A stretch of DNA of 64,000 nucleotides, from the NCBI GenBank assembly GCA_965218585.1, contig CBDCLE010000023.1:6460-70459 (forward strand). The letters are read 5' to 3'. The position numbers and the translations under genes are program-made. The notes beneath the pieces are model-generated. The model saw only the letters and a list, made by a program, of their open reading frames with translations, was not told where the DNA came from and did not search any database. Shown in pieces: positions 5,113-30,500 of the stretch. Positions within the stretch are counted from its first letter, which is position 1. The number at the start of each line of letters is the position of its first letter. This DNA is from Terriglobia bacterium (GTDB lineage: Bacteria > Acidobacteriota > Terriglobia > 20CM-2-55-15).

Positions 5113-5132
5113 CGAATGGGATCTGTGGTCTC

Positions 5133-10548: not shown

Positions 10549-10561
10549 TCCCGACCCCCAC

Positions 10562-12093: not shown

Positions 12094-12207
12094 CTTCTTA
12101 GCGCGCCGACGCCTCGGCTCCGCGTCTTTATTTGAAAGCGGTCCACCCGCACCGGCGGACCGGCGCGGGTCCTCCTCTACCTGCTTCAAAATTCCCCTGA
12201 TCCAATT

Positions 12208-12286
12208 GGCCTCTCCATCATCCTGATGGAGAGGGTCGCCGGTCGTTCGGCCAGGATGGCCGATTGAACGACCGAGCGAAATCTTC
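12208..12286 (-). repeat. Dual-hairpin intergenic repeat, copy B
   Basis: Its reverse complement reads GAAGATTTCGCTCGGTCGTTCAA-TCGGCC-ATCCT-GGCCGA-ACGACCGGCGACC-CTCTCCATCA-GGA-TGATGGAGAG-GCC. The loop of hairpin 2 is inverted relative to the other copies. Confidence 0.85.
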
Positions 12287-12343
12287 TCCAGTGAGCATTT
12301 GACTAATCCCAACTTTCCCAACACTAATCATGAATAGACACGC

Positions 12344-12380
12344 AAAAAAGCCGGTACCCGCTTTATAGCAGGTACCGGCC
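12344..12380 (-). terminator. Rho-independent terminator of the LLM oxidoreductase gene
   Basis: On the minus strand: GCCGGTACC-tgctataaagcg-GGTACCGGC followed by TTTTTT. It lies about 20 nt after the stop at 12401. Confidence 0.8.
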
Positions 12381-12400
12381 CATAAGACTGTGCGATTAGT

Positions 12401-13327
12401 TTACTTAATGTGAGGCAACACGTCCTTGGCAAACCATTCGATCTTCTCTCGACGCTCCGGCCAACGGCCTTTCATGAACTGAAGCGCGATGTGCTTCACG
12501 CCGATGTCCTTGAACTTGTTGATCGACTCGATCAACTGTTCGGGCGTACCCTCGAAGACATCATCCTGCTGGTCTACCGGATCCTTGGTAATCTCAACCG
12601 GACGGCAGCAGCAAAGGTCAACCTGACCCTCCCTGCCGAGCTCGGCAGCGGCTTTCTGAACCCTGCTGTACTTGGCAGCCAGATCCTCGGCCGAGATCTT
12701 CACGTGGTAAGAGAACCATGCATCACCATACTTGGCCGCGCGGTTGACCGCAGCTTCACTCTCTCCACCCGTCCAGATCGGGAAACGGGGATCCTGAACC
12801 GGTCTGGGACTGACCGACAGCGGTTCGAAATCGTAATGTTTTCCGTGGTAACTCGGCTTGTCCGATTTCCAGAGGGTATTGAAGATCTCGAGCTGCTCGT
12901 TACCCATCGCGCCCCTCTTTTTGAAAGGCACACCCAGGGCGTTGAATTCCTCGATCATCCAGCCGATTCCGGCTCCAAGGATGAGCCGACCGTTTGAAAG
13001 CGTATCGATGGATGTCGCGACGCGGGCCGTATAGAGCGGATGGCGAAACGGCAAAACGGCTACGCTGATACCCAGTTTGACCTTCTTGGTCACTCCGGAC
13101 AGGAAAGCCAGGCAGGTCAGCGGCTCAAGAAACGGAACGTCAGGTGGAACGAACCACTGTGAGTTGTCCTTATAGGGGTAGGCCGTTTCCATTAGCCATG
13201 GATTCACAAGGCGTTCTGCTGCCCAGACCGAATCGTAGCCTGCGTTCTCGGCCTGCTGGGCAGCGTCGGTCAAAACTTCAGGAACCGCGGCGCGGCCAGA
13301 GACTGGGAGAAAGACTCCAACTTCCAT
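12401..13327 (-). CDS. LLM-class (luciferase-like) F420-dependent oxidoreductase
   Basis: 308-aa ORF. It has the luciferase-like monooxygenase pattern (GVFLP...., SVWAAERL, GRLILGAGIGW, FPIWTGG). F420 dependence is inferred from family resemblance and the F420 genes in this window. Confidence 0.65.
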   Translation of the reverse strand: MEVGVFLPVSGRAAVPEVLTDAAQQAENAGYDSVWAAERLVNPWLMETAYPYKDNSQWFVPPDVPFLEPLTCLAFLSGVTKKVKLGISVAVLPFRHPLYTARVATSIDTLSNGRLILGAGIGWMIEEFNALGVPFKKRGAMGNEQLEIFNTLWKSDKPSYHGKHYDFEPLSVSPRPVQDPRFPIWTGGESEAAVNRAAKYGDAWFSYHVKISAEDLAAKYSRVQKAAAELGREGQVDLCCCRPVEITKDPVDQQDDVFEGTPEQLIESINKFKDIGVKHIALQFMKGRWPERREKIEWFAKDVLPHIK

Positions 13328-13740
13328 AAGAAATGTGCCTCCTTACTTTGATTAGGCAGAATTGTATTCTTGTTAAAACTTCGGCGAATCTTCAAACCAG
13401 TCGCGGGTCATCGCAGGAAAGAGGAGCTCTGCCGATCGCACAGAGTAGCAGATGCACCGCATCTGGTGCAAGCTGCGGGTGGTACTGGAAAAAACGCCGC
13501 TAAAGGCGTCTCGGGTCCGGCTATTTCAAACGCGAGTCAGGGCCATAGCCAACTGCTTCCCCTGTCTCATTTTCAATCACTTCCGGCCCCATTCCGGCCC
13601 CCACTCTTGATATATACTGGGCCCTCGGATCAGCCAATGGCCCTCCTGTCCGGCCAACCTCAGAGGTTCAAGAGTCCGCTGGGTGCTCCCGGACCCGTTC
13701 CCGATAACAGCCATTGCGGATCTCCAATAGAATTAAGCAC

Positions 13741-15930
13741 ATGACCACGGGAAAACATCCAGAACCTGATCGGCCGGAGGACTGGCAGGAGCGGGCTCGG
13801 ACAGAATCCAGGGGCAGGCCTCTCGAAGAACTCAACTGGGAGACCCCCGAGGGCATCCGCGTCAAGCCTCTGTACACGGCCGACGATTTGGACGAGATCT
13901 CCCACCTCGGCAACCTGCCCGGGTTCGCACCGTACGTCCGCGGCCCAAAAGCCACGATGTATGCCGGTCGGCCATGGACGGTTCGCCAGTACGCGGGTTT
14001 TTCCACAGCCGAGGAATCCAACGCGTTTTACCGGAATAACTTGGCCGCTGGTCAGACCGGTCTTTCGGTCGCATTCGACCTGGCTACACACAGGGGCTAC
14101 GACTCGGATCATCCGCGTGTGGTGGGCGATGTGGGCAAGGCCGGCGTGGCTATCGATACGATCGAGGACATGAAGATCCTGTTCGACGGTATGCCCCTGG
14201 AGCAGATGTCGGTGTCGATGACGATGAACGGAGCGGTCCTGCCAATCATGGCGATGTACATCGTTGCCGCCGAGGAACAGGGCGTCAGTCCGGACCAGTT
14301 GGCGGGTACGCTCCAGAACGACATCCTGAAGGAATTCATGGTCCGAAATACCTATATCTATCCGCCCGAGCCTTCGATGCGAATAGTGGCCGACATCATT
14401 TCTTATACCGCCCGGCACATGCCCAAATTCAACTCGGTATCCATCTCCGGCTACCACATGCTGGAAGCCGGAGCCACCAGCGTGCAGGAACTGGGGTTCA
14501 CGCTGGCCGACGGGATCGAATACGTGCGTGCAGCCCTCGGCAACGGATTAAAGGTCGATCAATTCGCACCCCGACTTTCGTTCTTCTTTGGTATCGGAAT
14601 GAACTTCTTCATGGAAGTCGCAAAACTCCGGGCGGCAAGGTTGCTCTGGTCCTCGCTGATCGAGGAACTGTTCTCGCCCCAAGACCCCCGCTCGTTGATG
14701 CTGCGAACACATTGCCAGACATCAGGCGTCAGCCTGACGAGTCAGGACGCTTACAACAACATCGTCCGCACGACCGTGGAGGCCATGGCTGCTGCCCTGG
14801 GCGGCACCCAGTCACTCCACACAAATTCCTTCGACGAAGCCCTCGCCTTGCCCACGCCGTTCTCCGCTCACATCGCACGCAATACACAGCTTGTGCTACA
14901 AGAAGAAACTGGAATCACACGCGTGGTCGATCCGCTCGCCGGGTCCTACTACGTCGAGAGTCTGACCGCTTCGCTTGCAGCCGAAGCCCGGAAGCTCATC
15001 GATGAAGTCGAAGAACTCGGGGGTATGACCCGGGCCGTCGAATCCGGCATGCCGAAGATGCGAATCGAGCAGGCCGCGGCGCTCAGGCAGGCTCGCATCG
15101 ACCGTGGGGAAGAGGTCGTCGTCGGTGTGAACAAGTATCGGCGCGAGGACGAACCGGACATTGAAATTCTGGACATCGATAACCGAGCGGTGCGGAAGGG
15201 CCAGATTGAGCGTCTGGACAGGGTTCGGAAAGAGAGGGACGAGTCGCCATGCCAGGCTCGACTGGAGGCTTTGACAGCCGCAGCAGAAGCAGGCACCGAG
15301 AACCTGCTTGTCCTGGCCATCGATGCCGCCAGGGCACGAGCAAGCGTCGGGGAAATTTCCGATGCTGTTGAGAAGGTGTACGGACGCCACAAGGCAGTCA
15401 TTCACTCGGTTAGCGGCGTCTACGGATCTGCTTACGAGGGAGACATTGGCTTTATGGAGATCCAGCGGGACATCGACGCGTTCGCACGTGAAGAAGGCCG
15501 GCGGCCCCGCATACTGATTGCCAAGCTGGGTCAAGATGGGCATGATCGCGGCGCCAAGGTTATCGCGACGGCGTTCGCCGACATCGGGTTTGACGTCGAT
15601 ATCGGCCCGCTGTTCCAAACTCCGGAAGAAGCCGCAGGGCATGCCATCGAAAACGACGTTCACGTCGTCGGCGTGTCGTCTCAAGCGGCAGGCCACAAAA
15701 CGCTTGTTCCCCAGCTGTTGGATTCGCTCAAGAAGCAAGGCGCGAACGAAATCATCGTTGTGTGCGGGGGTGTCATCCCACCGCAGGACTACGACGAACT
15801 GAAGGCCGCCGGCGTAGCCGCGGTGTATGGACCGGGAACGAACATCCCTGTGGCGGCCGGTGAAGTACTGAACCTGATTCGTGAAAGGCGGAAAGCCACA
15901 CTAGCGACGCCACAACCAAAGAAGGTTTAA
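13741..15930 (+). CDS. Methylmalonyl-CoA mutase, single-chain (catalytic barrel fused to the B12-binding domain)
   Basis: Start taken at ATG 13741; the ORF track offers 13714. Motifs [22 protein letters not shown] and [10 protein letters not shown], plus the C-terminal B12 DxHxxG motif in [12 protein letters not shown]. Confidence 0.9.
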
Positions 15931-15942
15931 TCGGAGACGTTC

Positions 15943-17475
15943 ATGCAAGACATCATCGAACAATTGGAACAAATGCGATCAGCCGCGAAACTCGGCGGCG
16001 GCAAAGACCGTATCCAGAAACAACATGCGAAGGGCAAACTGACAGCGCGCGAGCGCATCGAACTGCTCCTCGACTCCGGTAGCTTCGAAGAATGGGATAT
16101 GTTCGTCGAACATCGGTCGACCGACTTCGGCATGGGCGACAACAAGATACCCGGTGACGGCGTCGTTACCGGCTACGGAACGATCAACGGCCGACTCGTC
16201 TTCGTCTTCAGCCAGGACTTCACCGTGTTCGGTGGGTCGTTGTCGGAAGCCCACGCGGAAAAAATCTGCAAGGTAATGAAGCAGGCCATGAAGGTCGGCG
16301 CTCCGCTGATCGGATTGAACGATTCCGGGGGTGCACGCATCCAGGAAGGAGTTGCCTCCCTGGGCGGCTATGCCGATGTCTTTCAGCAGAACGTCCTGGC
16401 CTCAGGTGTCGTCCCCCAGATCTCGCTGATCATGGGCCCCAGTGCCGGCGGTGCAGTCTACTCCCCAGCGATCACTGACTTTATCTTCATGGTACGAGAC
16501 AGTGCTTACATGTTTGTGACCGGGCCCGACGTCGTCAAGACTGTCACTCATGAAGAAGTCACGGCCGAGGAACTCGGCGGGGCGGTCACACACACCTCGA
16601 AATCCGGGGTGGCCGATCTGGCATTCGAAAACGACGTCGAAGCGCTGCTGATGACGCGGCGGCTCGTCAATTTCCTTCCTCCGAATAACAAAGACAAACC
16701 GCCTACCTGGCCCACATCTGATCCGATGAGCCGCGTGGAATGGTCCCTGGACAGCCTTGTACCTGACGATCCGGCCAAGCCATACGACATGAAGGAATTG
16801 ATCGTGAAGGTAGCCGACGAAGGCGATTTCTTCGAGATACAGACCGAATACGCCAAGAACATTGTTGTGGGGTTCATTCGCATGGAAGGATCGACCGTCG
16901 GCGTCATAGCCAATCAGCCCATGGTCCTGGCAGGCTGTCTGGACATCAATTCGTCGGTGAAAGGAGCGCGTTTTGTCCGTTTCTGCGACGCTTTCAACAT
17001 ACCCATGCTGACGCTGGTCGATGTGCCGGGATTCATGCCGGGCACCGCCCAGGAATACGGCGGCATCATCAAACAAGGGGCAAAACTACTGTATGCCTAT
17101 GCGGAAGCCACGGTGCCCAAAGTTACCGTCATTACGCGCAAAGCCTACGGTGGGGCCTATGACGTCATGTCCTCGAAGCACCTGCGCGGAGACGTCAATT
17201 TTGCATGGCCGAGCGCCGAGATTGCAGTGATGGGACCGAAAGGAGCCGTAGAAATCATTTTCCGCCAGGACCTGGGAGACGAAGAGAAGATCGCGGAGCG
17301 GACCGAAGAATATCGGAAAAAGTTCGCGAATCCATTCATCGCGGGAAGCCGCGGATACATCGACGATGTCATCATGCCGAGAAATACACGCGCACGGGTT
17401 GCACGGTCCTTCGCGATGCTCAGGAACAAGTCGCTGGAGAATCCCTGGCGTAAACATGGAAACATTCCTTTGTAG
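15943..17475 (+). CDS. pccB: Propionyl-CoA carboxylase beta subunit (carboxyltransferase)
   Basis: 510-aa ORF. Typical carboxyltransferase pattern ([43 protein letters not shown]). Confidence 0.88.
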
Positions 17476-17504
17476 ATGAAGCAGCACGCCAAGAAAGCGA
17501 TCAC

Positions 17505-19490
17505 ATGTTCGAAAAGATTCTGATAGCAAACCGGGGTGAAATCGCCTGCCGGGTCATGAAAACCGCGAAGAAGATGGGAATCCGCACGGTGGCCGTGTAT
17601 TCGGATGCCGACCGGGACGCCGTGCACCGGCGGATGGCAGATGAAGCCGTGCGTATAGGCCCGCCGCCCGCAGCCGAGAGCTATCTGGTGGTAAACAACA
17701 TTCTGGACGCGATCAGGGAAACAGGCGCCGAGGCCGTGCATCCCGGCTACGGCTTCCTTTCTGAAAACGCAGCCTTCCGAGAGGCACTCGAGGGCGCTGG
17801 CGTCACCTTTATCGGTCCCGGCGTTGAGGCGATCAACAGCATGGGCGACAAGATCACGTCCAAGAAGCTGGCCGCCGATGCCGGCGTCAATACGATTCCC
17901 GGATTCGGGGAGACAATCGAGAGTGGGGATCATGCCGTAAAAGTGGCGCGTGAAATTGGTTACCCCGTGATGCTGAAGGCCAGCGCGGGTGGTGGCGGAA
18001 AAGGCATGCGCGTTGTGATCAGCGACGAAGAGACACGCGAGGGTTTCGAGCGTGCGACAAACGAGGCTCAGACCAGCTTCGGCGACGGTCGTGTGTTCGC
18101 CGAGAAATTCATCGAACAGCCGCGGCACATCGAAATCCAGGTGCTCGCCGACACGCAGGGGAACACGATCTTTCTGGGCGAACGCGAGTGTTCCATTCAG
18201 CGGCGCCACCAGAAAGTGATCGAAGAGGCCCCGTCGCCTTTCCTGAACAGGTCCACACGAGAAGCAATGGGTAAACAGGCCGTGGCACTAGCCAGATCGG
18301 TGAACTACTGTTCGGCGGGAACGGTTGAATTCATCGTCGATGCCAAGCGTGACTTCTATTTCCTCGAGATGAATACGCGCTTGCAGGTCGAACACCCTGT
18401 GACCGAACTGGTAACCGGCCTGGATCTGGTGGAGTTGATGATTCGTATCGCTGCAGGTGAGGCACTCGACATCCGGCAAAAGGACGTGAAGCTGAAAGGC
18501 TCGGCGATCGAGAGCCGGATCTATGCGGAGGATCCGTTCCGCAATTTCATGCCGTCCACAGGCCGACTGGTGCGCTATCAGGCACCGATTGAGACAAAAG
18601 TCACCCGGATTGATACGGGAATCGAAGAAGGCAGTGAAGTTTCCATGTTTTACGACCCGATGATCGCCAAGCTCATCACCTATGGAGACGACCGGGCCCA
18701 GGCTCTCCGGCGAATGGGCGACGCGCTCGACGCCTACTATATCCGCGGCGTGTCGCATAACATCAGCTTCCTGAACGCTCTGATCGCCCATCCCAGGTTC
18801 ATTAAGGGGAAACTGAGCACGAGTTTCATCGCTGACGAATTCCCTGACGGCTTTCATGCAAACCACGTCCCTCACCACGATCCTGTCCTGCCGGTAGCTG
18901 TCGCCGGAGCCGTCCACCAGAAACATATGCTCCGTGGAGCAGAACTCTCAGGCCAGCTGCCCAGCCACGAACGCCGGGTCGGTGACAGATGGACGGTCAT
19001 TGTCGACAAGAAACACTGGGCCATAACCGCAAGGCCCATTGAGGGCGGTTTCGAGATCAAGCACGGTAAGAGCACTTACAGTGTCATGACGGAATGGGAG
19101 ATTGGTAATCCCTTGTTTCGGGCGGAGATCAACGGCCAACAAGTCTGCTTTCAGATTGACGACGAGGGCGCCCGATATCGGTTGTCACATCGCGGCTCAC
19201 AAGTGGATGCGCTTGTCATAACGCAGAAGGCGGCGGAACTGAACCGTCATATGCTCGAAAAGCAGCCGCCAGATCTTTCGAAGTTTCTGCTGTCGCCAAT
19301 GCCGGGGCTCTTGATCCAGCTCCGGGTGAAGGCGGGTGACCAGGTCAAGGCGGGCGAGGAACTGGCCGTGGTCGAAGCGATGAAAATGGAAAACAGCCTA
19401 CGGTCTTCCGAAGACGTCACTATTCGGAAAACACTCGCAGCCCAAGGGGATAGCCTCGTCGTCGATCAACCGATCTTGGAATTTGAATAA
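17505..19490 (+). CDS. pccA: Propionyl-CoA carboxylase alpha subunit (biotin carboxylase plus BCCP)
   Basis: 661-aa ORF. N-terminus MFEKILIANRGEIACRV, ATP-grasp motif GGGGKGMR, and a C-terminal biotinyl-lysine motif EAMKMEN. Confidence 0.88.
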   Translation: MFEKILIANRGEIACRVMKTAKKMGIRTVAVYSDADRDAVHRRMADEAVRIGPPPAAESYLVVNNILDAIRETGAEAVHPGYGFLSENAAFREALEGAGVTFIGPGVEAINSMGDKITSKKLAADAGVNTIPGFGETIESGDHAVKVAREIGYPVMLKASAGGGGKGMRVVISDEETREGFERATNEAQTSFGDGRVFAEKFIEQPRHIEIQVLADTQGNTIFLGERECSIQRRHQKVIEEAPSPFLNRSTREAMGKQAVALARSVNYCSAGTVEFIVDAKRDFYFLEMNTRLQVEHPVTELVTGLDLVELMIRIAAGEALDIRQKDVKLKGSAIESRIYAEDPFRNFMPSTGRLVRYQAPIETKVTRIDTGIEEGSEVSMFYDPMIAKLITYGDDRAQALRRMGDALDAYYIRGVSHNISFLNALIAHPRFIKGKLSTSFIADEFPDGFHANHVPHHDPVLPVAVAGAVHQKHMLRGAELSGQLPSHERRVGDRWTVIVDKKHWAITARPIEGGFEIKHGKSTYSVMTEWEIGNPLFRAEINGQQVCFQIDDEGARYRLSHRGSQVDALVITQKAAELNRHMLEKQPPDLSKFLLSPMPGLLIQLRVKAGDQVKAGEELAVVEAMKMENSLRSSEDVTIRKTLAAQGDSLVVDQPILEFE

Positions 19491-19496
19491 CGCGGC

Positions 19497-20486
19497 ATGT
19501 CGTCACCCGATGCCAACAAGCTCGCCCAAACCGTCCTCGGCGGGGATCGCCGAGCCCTCGCCCAAGCCATTACCCTGATCGAATCTACCCGCCCTGAAGA
19601 TCGTCAAGGGGCCCATGTCCTTCTGGAAATACTCGTTCCGAAAGCAGGTCAGTCGATTCGAATCGGTATTTCGGGTGCCCCGGGTGTCGGAAAATCTACC
19701 TTCATTGAAAGCCTTGGAAACTACCTGATCGGTGAAGGCCACAAGGTTGCTGTCCTCGCAGTCGATCCCTCTTCGGCCCTCAGCGGAGGATCGATACTCG
19801 GCGACAAGACGCGGATGGAACTGTTGTCACGAAAGCCGGAAGCTTTTATCCGGCCGTCTCCCTCCGGAACGACGTTGGGAGGAGTCACGCGGCGAACCCG
19901 GGAAACGATGCTCGTCGCCGAAGCTGCTGGTTTCGACGTGTTGCTCATCGAAACCGTCGGCGTCGGACAGTCCGAAACCGCCGTCGCCCAAATGACTGAT
20001 ATGTTCATCCTGATGCTGTTGCCGGGAGGCGGGGATGACCTGCAGGGAATCAAGAGGGGCATCGTTGAACTGGCGGACTTGATCCTGGTCAACAAGTCCG
20101 ATGGCGACATGCAGCCGGTTGCCGAACGCTCGGTCACCGACTATCGAAACGGATTGCACTTCTTGCGTCCGCGCAGTGAGCACTGGCAAGTGCCGGTGGA
20201 GGGCTATTCGGCGATCGAGGGTTCAGCTACTCCCCGGGTGTGGGAGATTGTAGAGCAATACCAGAAGGCGCTGGTCGACGCAGGTGAGATCGAACGAAAA
20301 CGTGAGGATCAGGCAAGGGCGTGGATGTGGAGCGAGGTCACCGATGAATTGCTCGATGAGCTCAAGGACGATCCCGACGTGAAGGGAAAGATCGCCGAGC
20401 TCGAGCGGAGGGTCACAGAAGGCAGTTTGTCACCGACTGTGGCCGCACAGGAATTGATCGCCGCTTTCCTGAAGCGAGATAGCTGA
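19497..20486 (+). CDS. meaB: Methylmalonyl-CoA mutase-associated GTPase MeaB, paralog 2
   Basis: 329-aa ORF. Motifs GISGAPGVGKST, DPSSALSGGSILGDKTRM, ETVGVGQSE and NKSDG. It lies in the pcc/mce operon. Confidence 0.85.
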   Translation: MSSPDANKLAQTVLGGDRRALAQAITLIESTRPEDRQGAHVLLEILVPKAGQSIRIGISGAPGVGKSTFIESLGNYLIGEGHKVAVLAVDPSSALSGGSILGDKTRMELLSRKPEAFIRPSPSGTTLGGVTRRTRETMLVAEAAGFDVLLIETVGVGQSETAVAQMTDMFILMLLPGGGDDLQGIKRGIVELADLILVNKSDGDMQPVAERSVTDYRNGLHFLRPRSEHWQVPVEGYSAIEGSATPRVWEIVEQYQKALVDAGEIERKREDQARAWMWSEVTDELLDELKDDPDVKGKIAELERRVTEGSLSPTVAAQELIAAFLKRDS

Positions 20487-20500
20487 CGTTTGTGAGGGTC

Positions 20501-20905
20501 ATGATTGGAAAGCTCAATCACGTGGCAATAGCCGTACCGGATCTCGAGCAGGCGGTCGCCGTCTACAAGGGACTTCTGGGCGCGAGCGTGTCGCCCCCAG
20601 TCGAGCTTCCCGAACACGGCGTGACGACAGTCTTTGTCGAATTGCCCAACACCAAGATCGAACTGCTGCATCCGCTGGGAGAGGACTCACCGATCGGACG
20701 GTTCCTCGAGCGCAATCCTTCGGGAGGAATGCATCACGTCTGCTATGAGGTGGAGGATATTCTCGCGGCCCGTGACAAGCTGACGGCAGCTGGTGCGAGA
20801 GTGCTCGGGGATGGAGAACCGAGTATCGGGGCTCACGGGAAACCCGTGCTGTTTCTGCACCCTAAGGATTTCTGCGGGACGCTGATTGAGCTCGAGCAGG
20901 TCTAG
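20501..20905 (+). CDS. mce: Methylmalonyl-CoA epimerase (VOC/glyoxalase fold)
   Basis: Start taken at MIGKLNHVAIAVPDLEQA; the ORF track offers a GTG at 20492. Other motifs: GMHHVCYEV and LHPKDFCGTLIELEQ. Confidence 0.85.
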   Translation: MIGKLNHVAIAVPDLEQAVAVYKGLLGASVSPPVELPEHGVTTVFVELPNTKIELLHPLGEDSPIGRFLERNPSGGMHHVCYEVEDILAARDKLTAAGARVLGDGEPSIGAHGKPVLFLHPKDFCGTLIELEQV

Positions 20906-20992
20906 AAGCCGCCGGCTATCGAAAATCGCCTTCTCTCCCGACGGCCTGTCCCCAAGCCGGCACACTCCAGCTGATCCCACTTTACTCACTTC

Positions 20993-21071
20993 GAAGATTT
21001 CGCTCGGTTGTTCATTCGGACATCCTGTCCGAACGACCGGCGACGCTCGCGATCATCCTGATCGCAAGCCC
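20993..21071 (+). repeat. Dual-hairpin intergenic repeat, copy C (followed by a T-tract, so terminator-like)
   Basis: GAAGATTTCGCT-CGGTTG-ttca-TTCGGAC-ATCCT-GTCCGAA-CGACCG-GCGACGCTC-GCGATCA-TCC-TGATCGC-AAGCCC, then TTTTTT. It lies 87 nt after the mce stop codon. Confidence 0.9.
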
Positions 21072-21116
21072 TTTTTTCGGACAAGATTGGACGTTGTGGG
21101 GAGAGGCTGTCAGGCA

Positions 21117-22246
21117 CTACCCAAAAACATAAACGACGCCGTCGGTCGAACCGATCACGACCCGGCCATCGGCGATCGCCGGGGACGCGGTCAAGTCGGC
21201 TCCCGTGTTGAACTCCCACAGGTTAGATCCCGTGGTGGCGTCGAGCACGTACAGTCGCCCATCACTCGACCCGACGTAGACACGGCCGCCCGCGATTGCC
21301 GGAGACGAGTCCACGCGAGCGCGTGTCTCGAAGGTCCAGGCTGCTTCGCCGGTCGCGGTGTCAATCGCATGTACGAACTTGTCCCGTCCGCCGAGAATGA
21401 TCCGACCGTCTTCCAGAGCTGCGGAAGAGTAATAGGGAAACTGTCTGTTCGGGTTGCTGTAGCGCCAGAGAACACTTCGGTCGGTGAGGTCCAGCCCCAG
21501 GACTTCGTACTCGAAGGTTCCGAAATAGGCCCGATCGCGATCTAGCAACGGAGAGGCGGCCGTGTAGGCGCCCGCGATAATCTGGTACGCCTCTGTCCCG
21601 TCAGCGACACGGACCGCGCGGAAGATTCCATCGCACCCTGCAATAAACGCCAAACCGTCCTGGACTGCAGGCGTTGCATGCACCATGCTATCGGTCTGAA
21701 GTTTCCAACGGAGACTCCATCACCCGTGTCGAGCGCGTACAGGTGGGTGTCATAGGAACCAATTAGCACGACATCGTCTACGACGACCGGTGACGCCTTG
21801 ATCTCCCCGTCCGTTTGATATGTCCACAGAGGCTGGCCGTCTTCGGTACGCACCGCGTGAACGAACCCGTCGAGATCACCGACGTAGACAGTGCCCTGGT
21901 CGATAGCGGGGGAAGATTCCACGATGAAACTCCCCGTGGAATAGCTCCACTTGAGTTCCCCGGATTCCAGATCAAGAGCAATCAGGTCGCCGTTGCCGAC
22001 GCCCACATACACAACACCGTCTGCGATCGCGGCTGATGAGTCGATGGCATCCCCTGTCTCATAACTCCAGAGCAACTCCAAACTGCTGGGTGGAACCGTA
22101 GCCGCAACACCCGTCAGAGCAGGATCGCCACGAAACTGACTCCAGTTTTTGCTTCGAGCCGGGTCGGGTGTCTGGGCGGACACAGACGCAACCACGCCCA
22201 TGAGGATCAGGAGAACGGATGACTTACGAATCAAACCAGACTTCAT
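21117..22246 (-). pseudogene. PQQ-like beta-propeller protein, paralog 2, with a single-nucleotide frameshift near 21717
   Basis: ORF 21542-22276 reads ..HLYALDTGDG and then goes out of frame. The +2 frame continues SLRWKLQTDSMVHATPAVQDG.. into ORF 21117-21686. One base is missing in GAT-GG(N)-AGT. The signal peptide and the motif KNWSQFRGDPALTGV are present. Confidence 0.75.
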
Positions 22247-22256
22247 TGGTCCATGG

Positions 22257-23720
22257 TTATTCGGCCGACAGCGCAAACAACTGGTTGCGGTTGTTCATGA
22301 ACAATGCCCCGTGCGCTGGAACGACAGTCGAATAGACTGCACTCCCCATGTTCATTTCAGCGAGCACATTTTCATCTCGCCCGTGTTCGAGGACGACGAC
22401 GTCGCCGTCTTCGTCTCCAAGATAGACTCTACCGTCAACTACGAAAGCCGAGCCCCAAATGGCTGCGAAGGTATCGTGAACCCAGTAGGGCTCACCTGTG
22501 GCAGCATCGAGGCAGTGCAGGTAGCCGCTGAAGTCGGCGATATAGACCAGGCCGTCAACAACGGCAGCCGTGGAAATGGAACGACGGATATCCTCGTAGT
22601 GCCAAATGGCGCCGCTTTCTGTAATATCCCCGCTTCGGGTCGCATCGATCGCATAGAAATGCCCGACGCCTTCTCCATGCTCCGGGTCCTGTCCGTTTCC
22701 GATGTAAACACGGTCTTCGTAGATGACAGGCGTTGAGATGACTTCGTTGCGTGTTCGCGGCCACACCGAGTCTTTCGGGTTCGTGTCAAACTCCCACAGC
22801 TTTTCGCCTGTCTCGGCCACGTAGCCACGCACCCACCCGTCACCCTGCGCAGAAACCACCTGGATGACGCCGTCGATCTCGCCCACCGAAGGCGTTGACC
22901 ACTGCCCGTGCAGGATCCGATCTTCGACAGAGTTGTCTTCCCAGACCCACTCGCCCGTGTCTTTGTTGATAGCGACAATCGACGGAGCCAGGGGAGAAGG
23001 CACATTGACATGACTTTCATCATGACCGTTGGACGTGCTTACAAATATCAAATCCTCCCACATGACGGGAGAGGAGTTGGACATGTTGTGCGGGTAAGCA
23101 CCCACTTCTTCCAACATGTCGAATTCCCAGAGGACATCGGCATCGAATTCCCCGGTGCGTTCCTCATCGGTGATCGCGCCATCGTTCTCTCCGTCACGGA
23201 AACCCTGAATGTCCAACGCCGTGACCACTCCGCGATTCGTCGTGTAATAGAGACGCTCGTCCACAACCAATGGTGAGGAGGCTACGCCCTGAAATGGCCA
23301 ATCGTTGGCCCGTCCCGCCTCCAGCTTCGTATGCGTCTGCTGCCACAGGAACTCGCCGTCGGACTCTCGAAACGCCATCAGAACGCCACGATCTCCAGGT
23401 TGATCGGGATCGCGCAACAACTCGTTGTTCGTTCCAACGAAGACCATTCCTCCTGCAACAACGGGATTGCCATAACTCTGTGAACCCAGATCAGCCACCC
23501 ACTTGACGTTACGTCCGGTTTCCACGTCCCACTCCGCCGGCAGACCGGTCATTTCCGACACCATGTTGCGGTCCGCGGTCCCGCCCCACATCGGCCAGTC
23601 TCCGGTTCCCGGCTCTCCGGGCTGCGTTCTCGCCGGAGCGCCCTCGGGGGCACACACCAATGCGATAACGAGAATGACAAAAGGCTTTGAGTTTTTCAAA
23701 AATCGCATATATCTATCCAT
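22257..23720 (-). CDS. PQQ-like beta-propeller protein, paralog 3
   Basis: Start taken at MDRYMRFLKNSKPFVILVIALV (23720), because the longer ORF to 23759 would overlap repeat copy D. N-terminal motif GDWPMWGGTADRNMV. Confidence 0.75.
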   Translation of the reverse strand: MDRYMRFLKNSKPFVILVIALVCAPEGAPARTQPGEPGTGDWPMWGGTADRNMVSEMTGLPAEWDVETGRNVKWVADLGSQSYGNPVVAGGMVFVGTNNELLRDPDQPGDRGVLMAFRESDGEFLWQQTHTKLEAGRANDWPFQGVASSPLVVDERLYYTTNRGVVTALDIQGFRDGENDGAITDEERTGEFDADVLWEFDMLEEVGAYPHNMSNSSPVMWEDLIFVSTSNGHDESHVNVPSPLAPSIVAINKDTGEWVWEDNSVEDRILHGQWSTPSVGEIDGVIQVVSAQGDGWVRGYVAETGEKLWEFDTNPKDSVWPRTRNEVISTPVIYEDRVYIGNGQDPEHGEGVGHFYAIDATRSGDITESGAIWHYEDIRRSISTAAVVDGLVYIADFSGYLHCLDAATGEPYWVHDTFAAIWGSAFVVDGRVYLGDEDGDVVVLEHGRDENVLAEMNMGSAVYSTVVPAHGALFMNNRNQLFALSAE

Positions 23721-23750
23721 TACCTCTGCCTTCCGACCCTTCCCCCCAAC

Positions 23751-23834
23751 GGCTTGCAATCAGGATGATTGGGAGCGTCGCCGGGCTTCTTGCATTCAGA
23801 CGTCCTGTCTGAATGCAAGATCAAGCGAAATCCT
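23751..23834 (-). repeat. Dual-hairpin intergenic repeat, copy D (most diverged; hairpin-1 loop inverted)
   Basis: Its reverse complement reads AGGATTTCGCTTGAT-CTTGCA-TTCAGAC-AGGAC-GTCTGAA-TGCAAG-AAGCCCGGCGACGCTC-CCAATCA-TCC-TGATTG-CAAGCC. It starts 25 nt after the stop of the 740-aa PQQ-like gene. Confidence 0.8.
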
Positions 23835-23859
23835 ATTCTTGCGAGCCTAACTCAAGCCC

Positions 23860-26082
23860 CTAATTCGCCGTTAACACGAAGTTATCCAGATACGCGCCAT
23901 ACTCCGCATCGAGAAACAGTCCCGGCGCACCCTCACGATTCCCAATCGGATCCACTTTGTCGATCAGCCATTCCGACGGCTCTGCCTCGTCGACCTGCCA
24001 CGCCTTGCCCTGGATTCGGACCTGTCCGTCCGGCAGGTTTTCGACACGCACCTTCATCCGATACCACGTATCCGGCTCCCAGCTGAACGGAATAGTCACG
24101 GAGCGCTCGATCTCGGGCTCCCAGGGTTCCAGCTTCAGCTTCTGTGTGGTTCCGTAAAGGACGAGGGAATAGGCCTGGGCCGTGATTCCTACGTCGGCCA
24201 TCTGACGACGACGCGTCGGCGCACGGACGTCCGCCTGGAAAGTGTAGTCCGACCAGTCTGGCGGTCCCAGGAACATCCGAGCCCTTCCGAAGATCGTATT
24301 GTCGGGAGGTTTTTCGAAGACCCGGTCTCCGCCGAGTGTTGAGATCGTAAATCGTCCGGCTTGCGCGTTGACCCAACCCGGAGGCAGATCCCCATCCATA
24401 TAGGAATCGAACCCTTCTTCATAGGGAAGCGGATGAGACACTCGCGCTCTGGATTCTCCTGTCAGTCCACCCGCCACAGCCCGGATCACACCCGCCTGCA
24501 ACTGAGGTTCATTCGAAACAGTAAAAGTTCCGTCCTCACCCACCGTCCCTTCCAAACCGTCCAGTGACCACTCGGCCTCGGTCTCGCTCAGGAACCGACC
24601 CTGACTGTCAAACAGCCGCGCACGAAGACGCACCGTATCCCCCGGATCGAGCACCATTTCAGTCGGCACGACCTGGAGGTGGGTGGGAGCACCTTCCCCC
24701 TGGCCGATGGGCTCATCGACGGCCCATCCCTCGAGCGAAGACGCCTGGGCCGAACCGATGGCGTAGACTGCGTCACTGGTAACAAAGAAAACACGGCCTC
24801 TCGAAACAGCCGCTCCCGCGACGATTTGTTCCGGTGTGCCCTCTGAACTGCAACAACTGTCCGTACTCACCGGCAACTCGACGCGACTCAGAACCTCGGC
24901 ATTCGATTCTCCGGGCCGCACGATGTAGAAGGCTCCTCCGTTTGTCCCGACATAAATTTTGCCGTCTGCCAACACGGGCGCCGCACGCTGGGCATTGCCC
25001 AGGGGCAGTTCCCAAAGCTCGTCGCCGGTTTCGGTATCAAACGCCAGCAGGGTTGATCCTGAATCAATTTGATAGATGCGATCTCCATCGATGACCGGGG
25101 ACGAGTAACCAAGCTCGCGCCCCTTCACATCCCAGATCGTCTCTGTGATCTCCCCCGTACGGCCACCGGCGATGGCCGCGATCATGCCCAGTTCGGTACC
25201 CTCTAGATTTTCATCGCCGTGAGACATGAACACGACGTCGTCCTTAACGACCACGCCTGTGTTGACAGCCCTGCGCGCCGCAGGAAAACTCCAGACAACT
25301 TCGCCGGTTTGGGGTTTGATCGCGTGGACACCACCGTTACCGAGCCCCTGGATCAGCAGCCTCTGACCGCCAATAGTCGCTATCGTGGGCGGCCCATAGG
25401 CCGTGTCGAACGGACGGCTGCCCGGAGCAGATGCGTAAACGATCTCACCCGTCCGCTTGTCGAGCCCCACGAGCCGATGAGCCCGATTCCAGTTCGATCC
25501 CCAGCTCGAAATCGCGGCAGACACGATCACCAGATCGCCGTCGATCAACGGGGAGGCGGTCCGTCCGCCGTGGGTTGTGAAGGCTGCCCATTCCTCGGCA
25601 AACGATCGCTTCCAGAGAAGTTGCCCATCGGAGCTCAAGGCCACGACCATTGCATTGCCGCTCATGGCGTAGATGTTTCCGGTTTCGGGATCTGCAGCAG
25701 GCGAGGCCCAGCCGACGCGGTGGGGCGGTACGTCGCTCTGAAAGATATTGAACCGGTACTCCCAAACTATCTCTCCGGTGTCGACGTCGAGCGCCATCAC
25801 ACGTTCCTGAAGTGCGCTGCCCTGCTCGGCAGGGTTCTGCACGTAGAGACGGTCGCTCATCACGATCGGAGTAGAACGGCCACCGTAAGGAGCGCGCCAG
25901 AGGAAGTTCGCTCCGTTGACCTCCCATGTTTCCGGAAGGCCGGTCTCCAGAGAAGAGCCATCCCGGTGGGGTCCACGGATCTCCGGCCAGTCACCCAGGG
26001 CCACCCGGCCCGGATCCTGTCCGGTTGCGGTCACGGCCACCCCGACCAGCAGTGCCAGGAAGAGGGTCGGTTGTCTCAACAT
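23860..26082 (-). CDS. PQQ-like beta-propeller protein, paralog 4, with an extra C-terminal (Ig-like plus lectin/DUF1080-like) region
   Basis: 740-aa ORF. Signal peptide, then GDWPEIRGPHRDGSS. The roughly 270-aa C-terminal extension (..FDSYMDGDLPPGWVN..WYRMKVRVENL..) is only tentatively assigned. Confidence 0.7.
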   Translation of the reverse strand: MLRQPTLFLALLVGVAVTATGQDPGRVALGDWPEIRGPHRDGSSLETGLPETWEVNGANFLWRAPYGGRSTPIVMSDRLYVQNPAEQGSALQERVMALDVDTGEIVWEYRFNIFQSDVPPHRVGWASPAADPETGNIYAMSGNAMVVALSSDGQLLWKRSFAEEWAAFTTHGGRTASPLIDGDLVIVSAAISSWGSNWNRAHRLVGLDKRTGEIVYASAPGSRPFDTAYGPPTIATIGGQRLLIQGLGNGGVHAIKPQTGEVVWSFPAARRAVNTGVVVKDDVVFMSHGDENLEGTELGMIAAIAGGRTGEITETIWDVKGRELGYSSPVIDGDRIYQIDSGSTLLAFDTETGDELWELPLGNAQRAAPVLADGKIYVGTNGGAFYIVRPGESNAEVLSRVELPVSTDSCCSSEGTPEQIVAGAAVSRGRVFFVTSDAVYAIGSAQASSLEGWAVDEPIGQGEGAPTHLQVVPTEMVLDPGDTVRLRARLFDSQGRFLSETEAEWSLDGLEGTVGEDGTFTVSNEPQLQAGVIRAVAGGLTGESRARVSHPLPYEEGFDSYMDGDLPPGWVNAQAGRFTISTLGGDRVFEKPPDNTIFGRARMFLGPPDWSDYTFQADVRAPTRRRQMADVGITAQAYSLVLYGTTQKLKLEPWEPEIERSVTIPFSWEPDTWYRMKVRVENLPDGQVRIQGKAWQVDEAEPSEWLIDKVDPIGNREGAPGLFLDAEYGAYLDNFVLTAN

Positions 26083-26181
26083 AAGAATTTTCCTTCCGCA
26101 AAAGTGAAGAAACTCTGGGAATCGGAATAGCTAGAAAATATATCGTAGGTAGTTGAGGATTGGGCGAAATTCTGTCAAAAA

Positions 26182-27426
26182 TCAGCGCCCGCGAATGTCG
26201 TACGCCGTGACTGTGCCCTGATCCCGAATATAGAGAGTCCCATCACTGACTACCGGATGGGCACGACTGGGGAAACCCTGGTCAGACATCTCGAATCGGC
26301 CCTTTTCCGAATAGCCGGTCGGCGTAGCTTCAACCAGGCCTACGACATTGTTCTCGCTCAAGATATAAAGATGACCGTCCGCGTAAGCGAGGGAACCCTT
26401 TCCCACGCTACGGTCCCTCCACATCCTTTCTCCGGTCTCGAAATCCAGACACGTCAGAATAGAGTTATTGAATCCGTAGAGATATCCATCGACAACGACG
26501 ACACCACCATGATGGTTCCGCATGTCCCTAGTAAAATAGAGCTCCTCGGCAGCCACCTCTCCGCCCTGGGCTCTGAGTTCCAACAATCCTCCACCCGTCC
26601 CGTAAGCCGAGGTATAGAAAACCTTGTTGTCATAAAAGACAGGCGTCGCGACATTGGCAGTCCTGTTGGCTGGCCGCGTGTATCTCCACATCAGTCGGCC
26701 GTCCGCGGCCCGGAGACCCACACCTGCTTCGCCGGTCAGCGTCATCACCGTTCGAACGCCACCGATGTCGGCAACTATGGGTGAAGCATAGCCCGCCGGG
26801 TCGCTGAACCCCTGGCTGGTCCACATCGTTTCGCCGGTCCGCTTGTCGAGGGCGACCACTCCGGCATCGGAACCTCCCGGCGTAACGATGACCATGTCTC
26901 CGTCGATCAGAGGGGATTCGCTGATCAGCCAACTGATATTGCGACCGCCAAACTCTCGAAGGATGTTGAGTTGCCAGACGATGGAGCCGTCGTCGGCCTC
27001 GAGACACACCAAATCGCCAGTTTCGGTCAGGACGTAAAGCCGATCACCGTCGACGGTCGGCGTTCCCCTCGGTCCGGGGCCTTCCCGGTTTCTGAGCGTT
27101 CCACCGAGAGCACGAGACCAGATCAATCGCCCGTCGGCCCGGTCCAGACTGGCCACAGCGCTCTGCTCCCCGACGAGCATTTGAAGGTAGATTCGGTCTC
27201 CGGCAACAGCCAACGACCCGTATCCGCTGCCGAGACCCTGGGTTCGCCAAAGCTGGGCCGGGCCCGAGGCCGGCCATTCACTCATCAAACCGGACTCTTG
27301 GGAAAGACCGTCGCGGTTTGGCCCGCGCCACTGCGGCCAGTCGGTCAGAGTCAGGGACTGCCCCCCAACGAGGGTCGCCATCCCCACGAAGACCGCGAAG
27401 CTCATCACCCACAGGCGCGCCCGCAT
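26182..27426 (-). CDS. PQQ-like beta-propeller protein, paralog 5
   Basis: Start taken at MRARLWVMSFAVFVGMATLVGG (27426). N-terminal motif TDWPQWRGPNRDGLS. Confidence 0.75.
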   Translation of the reverse strand: MRARLWVMSFAVFVGMATLVGGQSLTLTDWPQWRGPNRDGLSQESGLMSEWPASGPAQLWRTQGLGSGYGSLAVAGDRIYLQMLVGEQSAVASLDRADGRLIWSRALGGTLRNREGPGPRGTPTVDGDRLYVLTETGDLVCLEADDGSIVWQLNILREFGGRNISWLISESPLIDGDMVIVTPGGSDAGVVALDKRTGETMWTSQGFSDPAGYASPIVADIGGVRTVMTLTGEAGVGLRAADGRLMWRYTRPANRTANVATPVFYDNKVFYTSAYGTGGGLLELRAQGGEVAAEELYFTRDMRNHHGGVVVVDGYLYGFNNSILTCLDFETGERMWRDRSVGKGSLAYADGHLYILSENNVVGLVEATPTGYSEKGRFEMSDQGFPSRAHPVVSDGTLYIRDQGTVTAYDIRGR

Positions 27427-27510
27427 CGCTGCACTCCTCCAGTTACGTTTGTCCCGAGCCTGGCACTGGCTATCCGGGGACGAGACGGCTAACATATTTC
27501 TCCGAACACC

Positions 27511-30500
27511 ATGACACTTTCGGAAAAAGCCTTCAACATGATTTCAGGGTTTGCCCTGACACTGGCCCTGACGCTGTCTCTGGCGGGCCCTCTCGAGGCA
27601 CAATCCTACCGCGCGTCGATCCGCGGAGTCGTCGTCGACCCTTCAGGCGCCAGCGTTCCGGGGGCACAGCTTGAGGTCACCAATGAAGTCACCGGAGACA
27701 GGCGCATCACACTGGCCCGCACCGACGGAAGCTTTGCCATATCTACGCTTCCGCCCGGCACCTACGTAATCGAAGCGGAACTTGACGGGTACCAACGGTA
27801 CGTGTACCGCACCGAGTTACAGGTTGGCCAGCAGTTGCGGCTCGACGTGGGTCTCACACTGGGTAACGTCACTGAAGCAATCGAAGTGAGGGCACCCGCC
27901 GTGGTCATCGATTCTCAGTCGGCCGCACTCGGCACCGTAATAGGCGGTGAGCAGCTCGCGGGGCTTCCCCTGGACGGCCGCAATTTTCTGGAATTATCCC
28001 TGCTCGCACCCGGGGCCGCACCGGCGCCTGAAGGCTCCGCCAGTTCTCTGAGAGGTGACTTTTCCTTCACTGTCAATGGTGCCCGCGAAGATGCGCACAG
28101 CTTCATGCTCGACGGTGTGTATAACGTCGACCCCAAACTGAACACCCCCGGTGTGCGACCACCGGTGGACGCGATCCAGGAGTTTGAAGTTCTGACCGGA
28201 ACCTACGATGCGTCGTTTGGACGCAATGCAGCGGGTCAGGTGAACGTCGTCACCCGGTCAGGTGGAAACGATTTTCACGGAACCGCTTACGGTTTCTTCC
28301 GAACCCGCTCTCTGAATTCACGGAATTTCTTTGCCCCCCGCAACGAAGAGGAACCCGCTTACAGCCGGGGTCAATACGGTGGATCGATCGGCGGACCCAT
28401 CGTCACCAACCGTACGTTTTCTTCGCCGACTACGAACACACCCGGCTTCGGGAGGGCATCACACGGGTGACCAACGTACCGACACTGGCCGAACGAAGCG
28501 GCGACTTTTCCGAAAGCCTGCTCAACGCCCCCTTCAACCCGTTCAGTGGGCAGCCGTTTTCCGGCAGAAGAATCCCCGACTTTTTCATTCATCCGGTCGG
28601 ACAGGCAATAGCAAACCTGTATCCGGAACCCAACCGCGCCACACCGTTCGCAAACTACGTGTCTTCGCCGACGCTCACCGACGAGATCGACCATTTCGAC
28701 GTGAGGATCGATCACAACTTCGCCCAGGGGCTCGCGGTTGATGACTCGATACAGCCTTCAACGATCGGCGCTTTTTCGAGCCGTTTGCTTCTGCGGTCAG
28801 TGTGCCGGGATACGGCACCGATGTGCCCAGCACGCGGACAGAACCTGGTCATAGGGTTTACCCAGCCTCTCGGCGGAAAACACCATTCATGATTTTCGCG
28901 TCGGATACACGCCGGTCTCGATCGCGGTCCTTCACCAGAACCGGGGCCAAAGCGTCAACCAGGACGTGGGCCCTGCCCGACCTGTCGTCGAAACCGCCGC
29001 GACTTCGGACTGAGTCAGATCACCGTGACAGGCTTCTCTCCCCTGGGCGACGAGTTCACGTCTCCACAAGAGAGTGCGACTGATATGTGGCAGGTGATGG
29101 ACACGGTGACCTGGACACGTGGTTCGCACATGGTTGCGACCGGCTTCGATTTTCGGCATGTCGGGCAGGAGGCTTTTCGCGATGTCCCAGTCTCGCGGTT
29201 TCCTGAACTTCTCGGACCGGTACATAACCGGAAATGCGCTGGCCGACCTTCTGCTCGGTTTTCCTCTTGTGACGGGAGGGGCGATTTCCGACAATCCCCA
29301 ACGCCTGCGCTCTTCTGCGTGGAGCGCCTTCGTGCAGGACAGTTGGAGAGTGCGACCCGATCTGACGCTGACAGCCGGCCTCCGCTACGAATACGTCGCA
29401 CCAGGAGTCGATGCCGACGATCGGGCGAACCTATATGACCCGGCGACCGGTGGGTTCGTGCAGGTGGGCACGGGCAGCATGCCCCGAGGTGGTTACAGAC
29501 CGGACCGCAACAACTGGGGCCCGCGAATCGGATTGGCGTGGACCCCGGACGCGGACAGGCAGACCGTCATCCGCGGGGGGTACGGTGTCTATTACAACCA
29601 GGGTGCTCTGGCCACAGGCGAAGGCCTCTACTTCAACGCTCCCTATTTCGATTTGAAACTCTTCGTCCCTGCTCCAGGCATTCCACCGGTGACACTCCAG
29701 GATCCCTTTCCCGACTCCTACCCCATCGCGCTTCCGGTTTCGGCCACGGCGTATCAGGGCGACCTCCAGACCGGCCGAATCGAGCACTGGAGCTTCGGTG
29801 TACAGCGCCAACTGGGGGATACCCGAACCATCGAGGTGGCGTACGTAGGATCGCGAGGTCGCAATCTGATCGCCGCAAAAGACATCAACCAGCCCGCTCC
29901 AAGCACCGCCCCGCGGAATCTCAGACCGAACCCCCTGTTCGATGACATCACGCTGATCGAGTCCCGCGGAAAGTCCGACTACAACGCGCTTCAGATCAAG
30001 TTCCGGCAGCGCTTCGACCGGGGCTTGTCCGTCCTGACGGCATACACGTTGGGTGAATCCAACGATGATGCCTCCGGTTTTTTTGCCAGTTCGGGCGACC
30101 CCAATTTCCCGCAGGACAGCCGGAACCCTGGCCTTGAATACGGACGTTCGAGTTTTGACGTACGGCACCGGTTCTCAACGAGTTTTGCCTGGGAGATGCC
30201 GTTTGGAGAGGGTCAGAGATGGCTGGGGAATAACGGCACGCTTTCGACGATCCTGTCCGACTGGGAACTGCAGGGCATCGTAACCCTCCAGAGTGGCCGC
30301 CCGTTTACGGTAGCCCTGCTGCCCGAATTCGACAACAGCAACACCGGGCGTTCCACACTGGGATTCGGTGCGAATGACCGGCCCGATCTCGTCGGTAACG
30401 CGGTCCTCGCGAACCCATCGCCCGAGCGATGGTTCGACACGACGGCTTTCGCCGTACCCAACTTTGGGAGTTTTGGCGACGCGGGAAGGAACATCCTCAC

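Follow-up and report, generated by a model that had tools for sequence, protein, structure and literature searches.

The intergenic repeat analysed here occurs five times in 64,000 nucleotides of DNA from a Terriglobia bacterium (contig CBDCLE010000023.1, positions 6,460 to 70,459; hereafter the window). Its dual-hairpin core of 80 bp is very probably the conserved cargo of a non-autonomous miniature inverted-repeat transposable element (MITE) of the IS630/Tc1-mariner type with a full length of about 280 bp. This assignment follows from the terminal inverted repeats (TIRs), the duplication of TA, the empty orthologous sites and an IS630 partner with the same ends. After insertion the TIRs and the linker decay while hairpins 1, 2 and 3 persist with compensatory changes. 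In old copies the hairpins are retained and the direction is nearly always that of the gene upstream, which suggests that the host constrains them as parts of its transcripts. Taken as a whole, it is rather probable that a transposon delivers a hairpin module, that this module is co-transcribed with the gene upstream, and that the host tolerates or uses it only when it lies in the sense orientation. The original prediction, drawn from the window alone, had described a repeat of about 80 bp that it did not recognise as a described REP, BIME or MITE family. The 80-bp core is real but forms only part of the longer unit, and on the structural side a reading other than a MITE is contradicted by the TIRs, the TA duplications, the empty sites and the IS630 partner.

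The five window copies, designated A to E, are recovered when the whole window is searched with a covariance model of the core, all filters being switched off, and also with an nhmmer profile. The covariance model finds exactly these five (E from 1e-27 to 1e-10), its remaining hits below E 0.17 being weaker ones, antisense or partial, that fall within these loci, and the profile returns the identical set. The copies align over about 80 nt with a mean column identity of 71%, flanks included. All five cores are intergenic, lie 14–115 nt past a stop codon and share the orientation of the upstream gene, and Pfam domains are present in all ten of the flanking open reading frames (ORFs). The positions of the copies, their stem variants, the intergenic placement and orientation and a T-tract following copy C alone had all been given in the original prediction, and all agree with the present alignment and searches. 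Rfam 15 yields nothing for the window at gathering thresholds, nor any hit to the element in three loci, with four full-length copies among them, when E values up to 1 are admitted. Erosion of the window copies, which are old, has left A, C, D and E with the left half only and B with most of the element.

A pattern taken from the invariant core, with 22 core positions fixed, was used to scan bacterial contigs representing one genome per species. Of the 74 loci obtained (cited below by L numbers), 67 come from four uncultured Terriglobia metagenome-assembled genomes (MAGs), namely CBDCKF01 (47 loci), CAXWPJ01 (15), CBDHGK01 (3) and CBDCFM01 (2), and the fetched loci cover about 6% of each MAG. 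Seven loci fall outside the Terriglobia (Planctomycetia, Sphingosinicella, Clostridia, Microvirga, Pseudomonadota, Acidobacteriaceae and Gammaproteobacteria), and six of these were rejected as chance pattern matches in coding-like sequence. The seventh, L003 (JAPUJX010000610.1, 3.8 kb, labelled as a Gammaproteobacteria MAG), bears a true full-length Terriglobia element and is therefore probably a mis-binned contig. By this pattern scan the element is seen only in four to five uncultured Terriglobia species and the genome of the window. Plasmid and phage records gave no BLAST match to a full-length copy, and the core pattern is absent from viral contigs.

The profile gives 99 matches in the 74 loci plus the window. 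Extended alignments of 68–75 copies show that conservation continues far past the 80-bp core and ends in a TIR-bounded unit of about 280 bp (260–300 bp), and the MAG copies are mostly of full length. From left to right the consensus consists of C-TA-GTGTCCTGAGTCAGAAGTTCGCGATATAAGATTTCGCT, hairpin 1, GGCGAC, hairpin 2, a linker, hairpin 3 (CCCGCACCG/CGGTGCGGG), GAGGCGG.AGCCGAGGCGTC and CGAACTTCTGACTCAGGACAC-TA-G. Short ORFs within the cargo were considered and rejected, since the candidate ATG codons are not conserved and the frame is broken by indels. An internal promoter at TATAAG was likewise discarded because it has no usable -35 region, is not conserved in old orthologous copies and was not flagged by the scan; no other promoter is conserved in the old copies. 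Structural variants of the core are also found, with 23-nt insertions within the hairpin 1 loop in two copies (L049 5844-5952, minus strand; L072 5842-5949, plus strand) and TATAGGATTTCGCTCGG duplicated in tandem in another (L048 5617-5752, minus strand).

The consensus ends are TIRs of 22–24 bp, TA-GTGTCCTGAGTCAGAAGTTCG ... CGAACTTCTGACTCAGGACAC-TA. In individual copies the two arms have decayed, with 59% Watson–Crick pairs within a copy compared with 55% between copies. As pairing within a copy is barely above that between copies, the TIRs are decaying and not under selection, and with their many mismatches a selected long-range RNA stem was rejected. In the window they survive only as vestiges in copies D and E. 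The dinucleotide TA flanks the left end in 23 of 50 copies and the right end in 23 of 50, against a background of 2.5%, and CTAG (C-TA or TA-G) is the commonest flanking context (11/50 and 14/50 at the two ends). Elements of the IS630/Tc1-mariner group insert at TA and duplicate it (PMC2170065), and references cited in that paper attribute to IS630 a preference for TA within CTAG.

Synteny between the window and loci of three MAGs, at 75–85% nucleotide identity, allows a site-by-site comparison. A full-length co-oriented copy in CBDCKF (L044 6141-6426) is absent from both the window and L066. At about its position the window has an unoccupied CTAG target site (15902-15905), just upstream of the 12-bp spacer of an operon-like gene pair (13714-15930 and 15943-17475). 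Similarly, the copy at L049 5674-5984 is absent in L051, the flanks TA/TG of the occupied site corresponding to a single TG at the empty one; the empty sites bear a single TA or TG. In the opposite direction, window copies A and B are absent at the orthologous sites of L044.

A scan of soil metagenomes with the exact left TIR found more than 120 contigs, in which TIR pairs fall into spacing classes of 100–190 bp, 250–300 bp and 1150–1210 bp, the longest with 13 pairs. A 1158-bp insertion sequence at L105 191-1348 has 24-bp ends identical to those of the MITE and C-TA...TA-G flanks. It contains a 366-amino-acid ORF that matches NCBIfam NF033545 transpos_IS630 with 275 bits (cut-off 100) and the Pfam families DDE_3, HTH_32, HTH_28, HTH_29 and HTH_23. 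The transposase is present in 25 metagenome loci, and the dual-hairpin cargo in none of the 120 metagenome loci with the exact TIR. The MITE and the L105 insertion sequence share only their 24-bp ends, the cargo being unrelated. The host MAGs contain resident transposases of the IS630 family, with 48% identity to the L105 protein, in insertion sequences whose TIR (GTGTAGTCCGTCAGAA) matches that of the MITE at 14 of 19 positions (L006 about 2990-4150, L027 7020-7952, L038 3851-4900 and L028 647-1696). Those at L027 and L038 sit exactly at the TA of a MITE terminus, and thus the ends of the MITE recreate target sites.

Autonomous IS630-family copies of 1150–1210 bp occur at L105 and also at L084, L093, L106, L125, L149, L151, L175 and others; in these the transposase ORF enters the right TIR and stops on a TAG made with the flanking TA, and the protein diverges by up to about 40% with the TIR unchanged. 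The shorter spacing classes represent other MITE families. At least three such families in soil metagenomes have identical 24-bp TIRs and CTAG flanks around an unrelated, very GC-rich palindromic cargo (L095 3113-3382, L130, L148 and L193, 269 bp; L104 and L145, 163 bp; L089, 171 bp).

Orthologous insertions were found at five sites (those of copies C and D and sites X, Y and Z), each common to two to four species. In these shared copies the 76-nt core is 91–99% identical between MAGs, and 87–98% identical at the 54 positions not fixed by the search pattern; at the unfixed positions the window copies are 72–82% identical. The same shared elements are only 58–71% identical in the linker, 58–79% in the left TIR and 23–54% in the right TIR, and their 400-bp coding flanks are 76–90% identical. 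Homogenisation by gene conversion does not account for the slow core, because orthologues share site-specific variants that are unlike the consensus of each genome. Compensatory exchanges between orthologues include CGGTTG/CGACCG against CCCTCG/CGAGGG, TCGGAC/GTCCGA against TCAGAC/GTCTGA and, in hairpin 2, a C-G against an A-T pair.

In an alignment of 80 cores 96% of the cells are paired and 10 of the 29 base pairs change on both sides (97 cells), values for pairing and covariation that none of 500 shuffles reached; structures slid by one to three columns gave only 22–45% pairing. The repeat is therefore the multicopy family with compensatory stem changes that the original prediction had proposed from five copies. 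The loops behave differently from one another. About 75 of the 80 copies retain that of hairpin 1, and that of hairpin 2 varies (TCC, TCG, TCA or GGA), with loops flipped, that is reverse-complemented, in several copies. AUCCU, which had been placed in both loops, is not present throughout, being flipped in hairpin 2 of copy B (AGGAU) and in hairpin 1 of copy D (AGGAC). With a hairpin 2 loop that is so free to vary and with loops flipped in several copies, the anti-Shine–Dalgarno function suggested for this motif is weakly founded.

The co-orientation with the upstream gene noted in the window extends to about 80 further copies in related genomes. Between genes on the same strand, 37 core-bearing copies are oriented with the genes and 6 against them (p = 1.6e-6), or 32 and 6 when orthologous duplicates are removed; a further 30 copies lie between convergent and 7–8 between divergent genes. 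Overall, 83% of the copies are placed so that read-through from upstream would yield the sense strand. Orientation alternates along a 4.6-Mb contig and even within single 8-kb tiles, so that it tracks the strand of the local genes and not the replichore; a replication-strand cause was rejected on these grounds. Nor can the target site cause the bias, since the TIRs are symmetrical. The upstream stop codon consists of the duplicated TA and the first base of the TIR (TAG) at 20 of the 61 left ends that are intact, and only 6 of 57 right ends give the stop codon of a convergent gene; in the window, copies A, D and E begin at a stop codon. The spacer outside the element is no longer than 100 nt in 21 of 36 co-oriented copies, which places those copies inside operon-like pairs, and the six opposed copies mostly have longer spacers.

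A plausible source of the bias is polarity, caused by the right half of the element. The tail that follows hairpin 3 has a mean of 4.1 T in 8 on the antisense strand compared with 0.6 on the sense strand, and the sense strand of the right half has a C/G ratio of 0.5–0.65, the antisense RNA there being C-rich and G-poor. The combination of hairpin 3, a U-rich tail and C-rich, G-poor RNA suggests that an opposed copy in an operon would tend to terminate transcription. Hairpin 2 was also considered as a general terminator and rejected, as its tail has a mean of 2.8 T in 8 (80 copies), only copy C joins the hairpin to a U-tract, and a terminator scan flagged none of the elements, including the window hairpins with a genuine T-run.

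These observations can be arranged in the following scheme. A transposase of the L105 type, or a resident relative, would mobilise the element in trans by cut-and-paste into TA. With TA at 2.5% of dinucleotides, the usable extragenic TA or CTAG sites would often be stop codons. Such use of stop codons as target sites would account for the many copies that start exactly at a stop, where TA and the G of the TIR remake TAG. Read-through from the upstream gene would then transcribe the element. In the sense orientation transcription would pass, and the stable stem-loops would serve as a 3'-end or intercistronic module like those of REP/ERIC elements, one that shields the mRNA against 3' exonucleases or offers a platform for protein binding. 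In the antisense orientation hairpin 3 and its U-rich tail would end transcription and be selected against inside operons. A role of the element at the RNA level is possible, although we place it somewhat below an even chance. The more specific proposal that the IS630 transposase spreads a ready-made RNA module, with hairpins 1–3 acting as a sense-only element of host 3' untranslated regions (3'UTRs) or intercistronic regions, is put forward tentatively. Such a module might be, for example, a protein-binding or mRNA-stabilising cassette, and would have been kept by purifying selection beyond the separation of species; we regard the proposal as doubtful.

Several points weigh against this scheme. 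The sense and antisense strands of the window copies fold equally well, and about 13 G.U cells stand against about 26 A.C cells, so that sense RNA is not favoured. Since G.U is not in excess of A.C and palindromes can correct themselves in DNA, covariation cannot by itself assign the structure to RNA. The loop flips, together with the filled hairpin 1 bulge of copy D, are typical of template switching at the DNA level. Family-wide conservation of the core is inflated by the 22 positions that the pattern fixes, and the census favours intact cores, the pattern having missed some copies (about 10 were met by chance in the same 8-kb tiles). The orientation counts come from a dicodon gene finder of our own, trained on the loci and checked only in the window, where its calls agree with Pfam. 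Judged as an E. coli terminator, the antisense one, with 4 U in 8, is weak. A strong canonical terminator (12381-12348, minus strand; a 15-bp stem followed by a T-run, GCTTTTTTGCG) lies between a luciferase-like monooxygenase gene and copy B, which is therefore probably not co-transcribed with its upstream gene. Finally, the transposase with the exact TIR was found only on metagenome contigs without assigned taxonomy, and neither in the window, which has no transposase at all, nor in the fetched 6% of the MAGs; the 74 genome loci gave no autonomous copy with the exact TIR, only chance TIR-like strings.

A rival account is that of a purely selfish or neutral MITE without host function, in which the apparent conservation of the core would stem from ascertainment, palindrome self-correction and the youth of many copies, and the orientation bias only from purging of antisense copies that terminate transcription in operons. 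The TIRs, the TA duplication and the IS630 partner suit such an element, as do the search pattern with its 22 fixed positions, the loop flips and perfected stems as DNA-level processes, and the neutral wobble test. The families with the same TIRs and unrelated hairpin-rich cargo suggest in addition that hairpins may be a general property of these MITEs. However, the unfixed core positions of orthologues are 87–98% identical as against 23–79% for the linker and TIRs and 76–90% for the neighbouring genes. Self-correction of palindromes cannot explain an unpaired hairpin 1 loop that is kept in most copies, and the shared copies are older than the species splits, so that youth is no explanation for them. 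We therefore consider this account unlikely, though not negligible. A third possibility is that the hairpins act as DNA, as cruciforms bound by a nucleoid protein, gyrase or a REP/BIME-like factor, or as single-stranded substrates of HUH/RAYT enzymes. The stems do keep structure and not sequence, both strands fold equally, and siting 3' of genes with TAG stops is also described for GTAG REPs (PMC3733652). Yet a double-stranded or cruciform site should ignore the direction of transcription, in conflict with the bias of 37 to 6, the ends are a TIR and TA duplication without a GTAG or CGTC head and are not REP-like, and orientation is not set by the replichore, unlike in elements of the IS200/IS605 type. 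A DNA-level role is thus very unlikely.

The reading offered by the original prediction, a stand-alone structured RNA family with anti-Shine–Dalgarno AUCCU loops and no transposable element, draws on the covariation, the co-orientation with upstream genes and the conservation at orthologous sites. It is highly improbable in view of the TIRs, TA duplications, empty sites and IS630 partner, which contradict its exclusion of a MITE, and of a hairpin 2 loop that is free to vary and at times reads GGA; the old copies moreover have no conserved promoter, and Rfam no match. The converse idea is that the antisense strand is the functional one, its CAGGAUG loops acting as sponges for CsrA-type proteins or as Shine–Dalgarno mimics. 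CAGGAUG, which matches the CsrB repeat and CsrA-binding motif, is present in both antisense hairpin loops, and the two commonest mismatches of hairpin 2 (C.A and A.C in the sense strand) become G.U in the antisense. Against this, 83% of the copies would yield the sense strand on read-through from upstream, no promoter was found in the copies and the hairpin 2 loop is variable, and the idea is barely credible. The transposon-delivered, sense-tolerated or sense-used module remains the most likely reading.

In its way of moving the element resembles the bacterial MITEs derived from IS630/Tc1-mariner transposons, such as Nezha in cyanobacteria and the Correia elements of Neisseria. Like these it is short and non-coding, has TIRs of about 24 bp and a TA duplication favoured in CTAG, occurs as dispersed intergenic copies, and is matched by an autonomous insertion sequence with identical ends and a transposase with HTH and DDE_3 domains. 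It differs in that nothing but the 24-bp ends relates its cargo to the insertion sequence, that the cargo and not the TIRs is conserved at orthologous sites, that orientation is strongly biased relative to the upstream gene, and that the pattern scan found it only in four to five uncultured Terriglobia species and the window genome. The REP/BIME and ERIC (IRU) elements of Proteobacteria are likewise stable extragenic palindromes, located 3' of coding regions and mostly between same-strand or convergent genes. REP and ERIC elements have been proposed to stabilise the 3' ends of mRNAs with which they are co-transcribed. The present element has two different hairpins in fixed order with conserved linkers, no sequence match in Rfam, plasmid and phage searches, and the boundaries of a transposon, TIR and TA, in place of the GTAG or CGTC head of the 20–40-bp REP palindromes that are associated with a Y1 transposase; no search was made for RAYT genes. 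REP termini too can supply a TAG stop codon (PMC3733652).

A GC-rich hairpin 3' of a gene is also the hallmark of intrinsic terminators, which copy C resembles in that its hairpin 2 is followed by T6. In the family at large the tail of hairpin 2 is too poor in T (2.8 in 8), and the more terminator-like hairpin 3 points antisense. IS200/IS605-type elements, which have no TIR or target duplication, differ from the present one by its TIRs and TA and by an orientation that is not tied to the replication strand. Integron attC sites, with R''/R' core sites in arrays of promoterless cassettes next to intI, differ in that the copies described here are dispersed over megabases among ordinary metabolic genes; no search for intI was made.

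The repeats of uncultured Acidobacteriota are virtually unmapped territory, and this family is a clean case of a MITE whose cargo, rather than its ends, outlasts insertion. Constraint on the cargo after insertion and a strong bias to the sense orientation go beyond a plain MITE, and both merit further study. Should the restriction to the sense orientation and the slow evolution of the core hold genome-wide, the element would be a tractable case of a transposon-delivered RNA structure co-opted into bacterial transcripts. If the RNA-module proposal itself were true, it would constitute a 'mobile 3'UTR' rewiring operon expression across a Terriglobia clade. The element can be used as a marker for this specific clade. 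Annotators should be aware that a transposon end often provides the stop codon in these genomes.

Among the window copies, copy C is the focal one. It occupies 20993-21099 on the plus strand as left-half cargo (profile nodes 47-150; nhmmer E = 1.4e-31; 98 bits in the covariance model) and is situated between the convergent genes 20492-20905(+) and 21117-21686(-). Hairpin 1 (21000-21043, plus strand) is built from a basal stem TCGC/GCGA, an outer stem CGGTTGT/ACGACCG with one U.G pair, a 4-nt bulge, an inner stem TCGGACA/TGTCCGA and the loop TCC. Hairpin 2 (21045-21069, plus strand) pairs GCTCGCGATCA with TGATCGCAAGC around a TCC loop, with one C.A mismatch that is common to the entire subfamily of copy C, and is followed by the T-tract at 21072-21077. 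The orthologues of copy C in L031 and L066 retain hairpin 3 and the right half.

Copy A (10436-10564, minus strand; profile nodes up to 146) lacks the right half, and its outer stem is broken by a 13-nt insertion in hairpin 1, giving a fold z-score of -1.3 compared with about -5 in the other copies. It is flanked by two genes that are likewise on the minus strand, one MeaB-like (10562-11515) and one radical-SAM (9206-10357), and its left end adjoins the TAG stop codon at 10564-10562. An extension of its profile match to 10594 was rejected because it overlaps conserved coding sequence beyond 10564. Copy D (23743-23862, minus strand; nodes 13-132, profile match 23868-23743) has lost the right half and still shows a decayed TIR, GGGGCTTGAGTTAGG. 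Its left terminus is the TAG stop codon (23862-23860) of the upstream gene, and its hairpin 1 has been rebuilt as a perfect stem of 14 bp whose loop is flipped. The orthologues of copy D in L031, L041 and L005 are full-length copies.

Copy B (12094-12312, minus strand) is the most complete in the window, extending from node 21 to about node 245 with hairpins 1–3 and the GCGGAGCCGAGGCGTC segment (nhmmer E = 9e-60, profile match 12312-12047). It lies in a convergent gene context and has the flipped hairpin 2 loop GGA. A 127-amino-acid ORF across it (11941-12324, minus strand) is almost certainly spurious, the real gene being a plus-strand thioesterase at 11692-12093, and exemplifies the false ORFs to be guarded against over this element. 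Copy E (43713-43852, plus strand; nodes 21-160, nhmmer E = 2.5e-39, match 43712-43852) is located between two plus-strand genes, for an aldehyde dehydrogenase and a glycosyltransferase. Beginning at the TGA stop codon (43713-43715), it retains the TIR remnant TGAGTC and ends with the internal CTAG of the element (43849-43852), 6 nt ahead of the next start codon. This internal CTAG, at which copy E stops exactly, corresponds to profile nodes of about 158-161; at L007 (from about 7676 onward) and L072 (about 5980-6250) a second IS630-type MITE with the TIR CAGCCCGTGGCAGAAGT... is nested in the same CTAG.

The syntenic block formed by window 9375-28958 with L044, L031, L066, L041 and L005 is a local hot spot, with four window copies in 14 kb; the orthologous 16 kb of CBDCKF contain three, of which no more than two are at shared sites. 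Within it, L041 and L005 carry an inverted pair of right-half fragments at a site matching window 26083-26186, where the window has none. At the L044 sites that correspond to copies A and B (1009-1039 and 2499-2529), a different palindrome, GG(G)ACACTT...AAGTGTCC(C), is found right after the same stop codons, and it recurs at L057 about 5100-5175. It seems to represent another, small family of hairpin repeats that takes up the same 3' positions.

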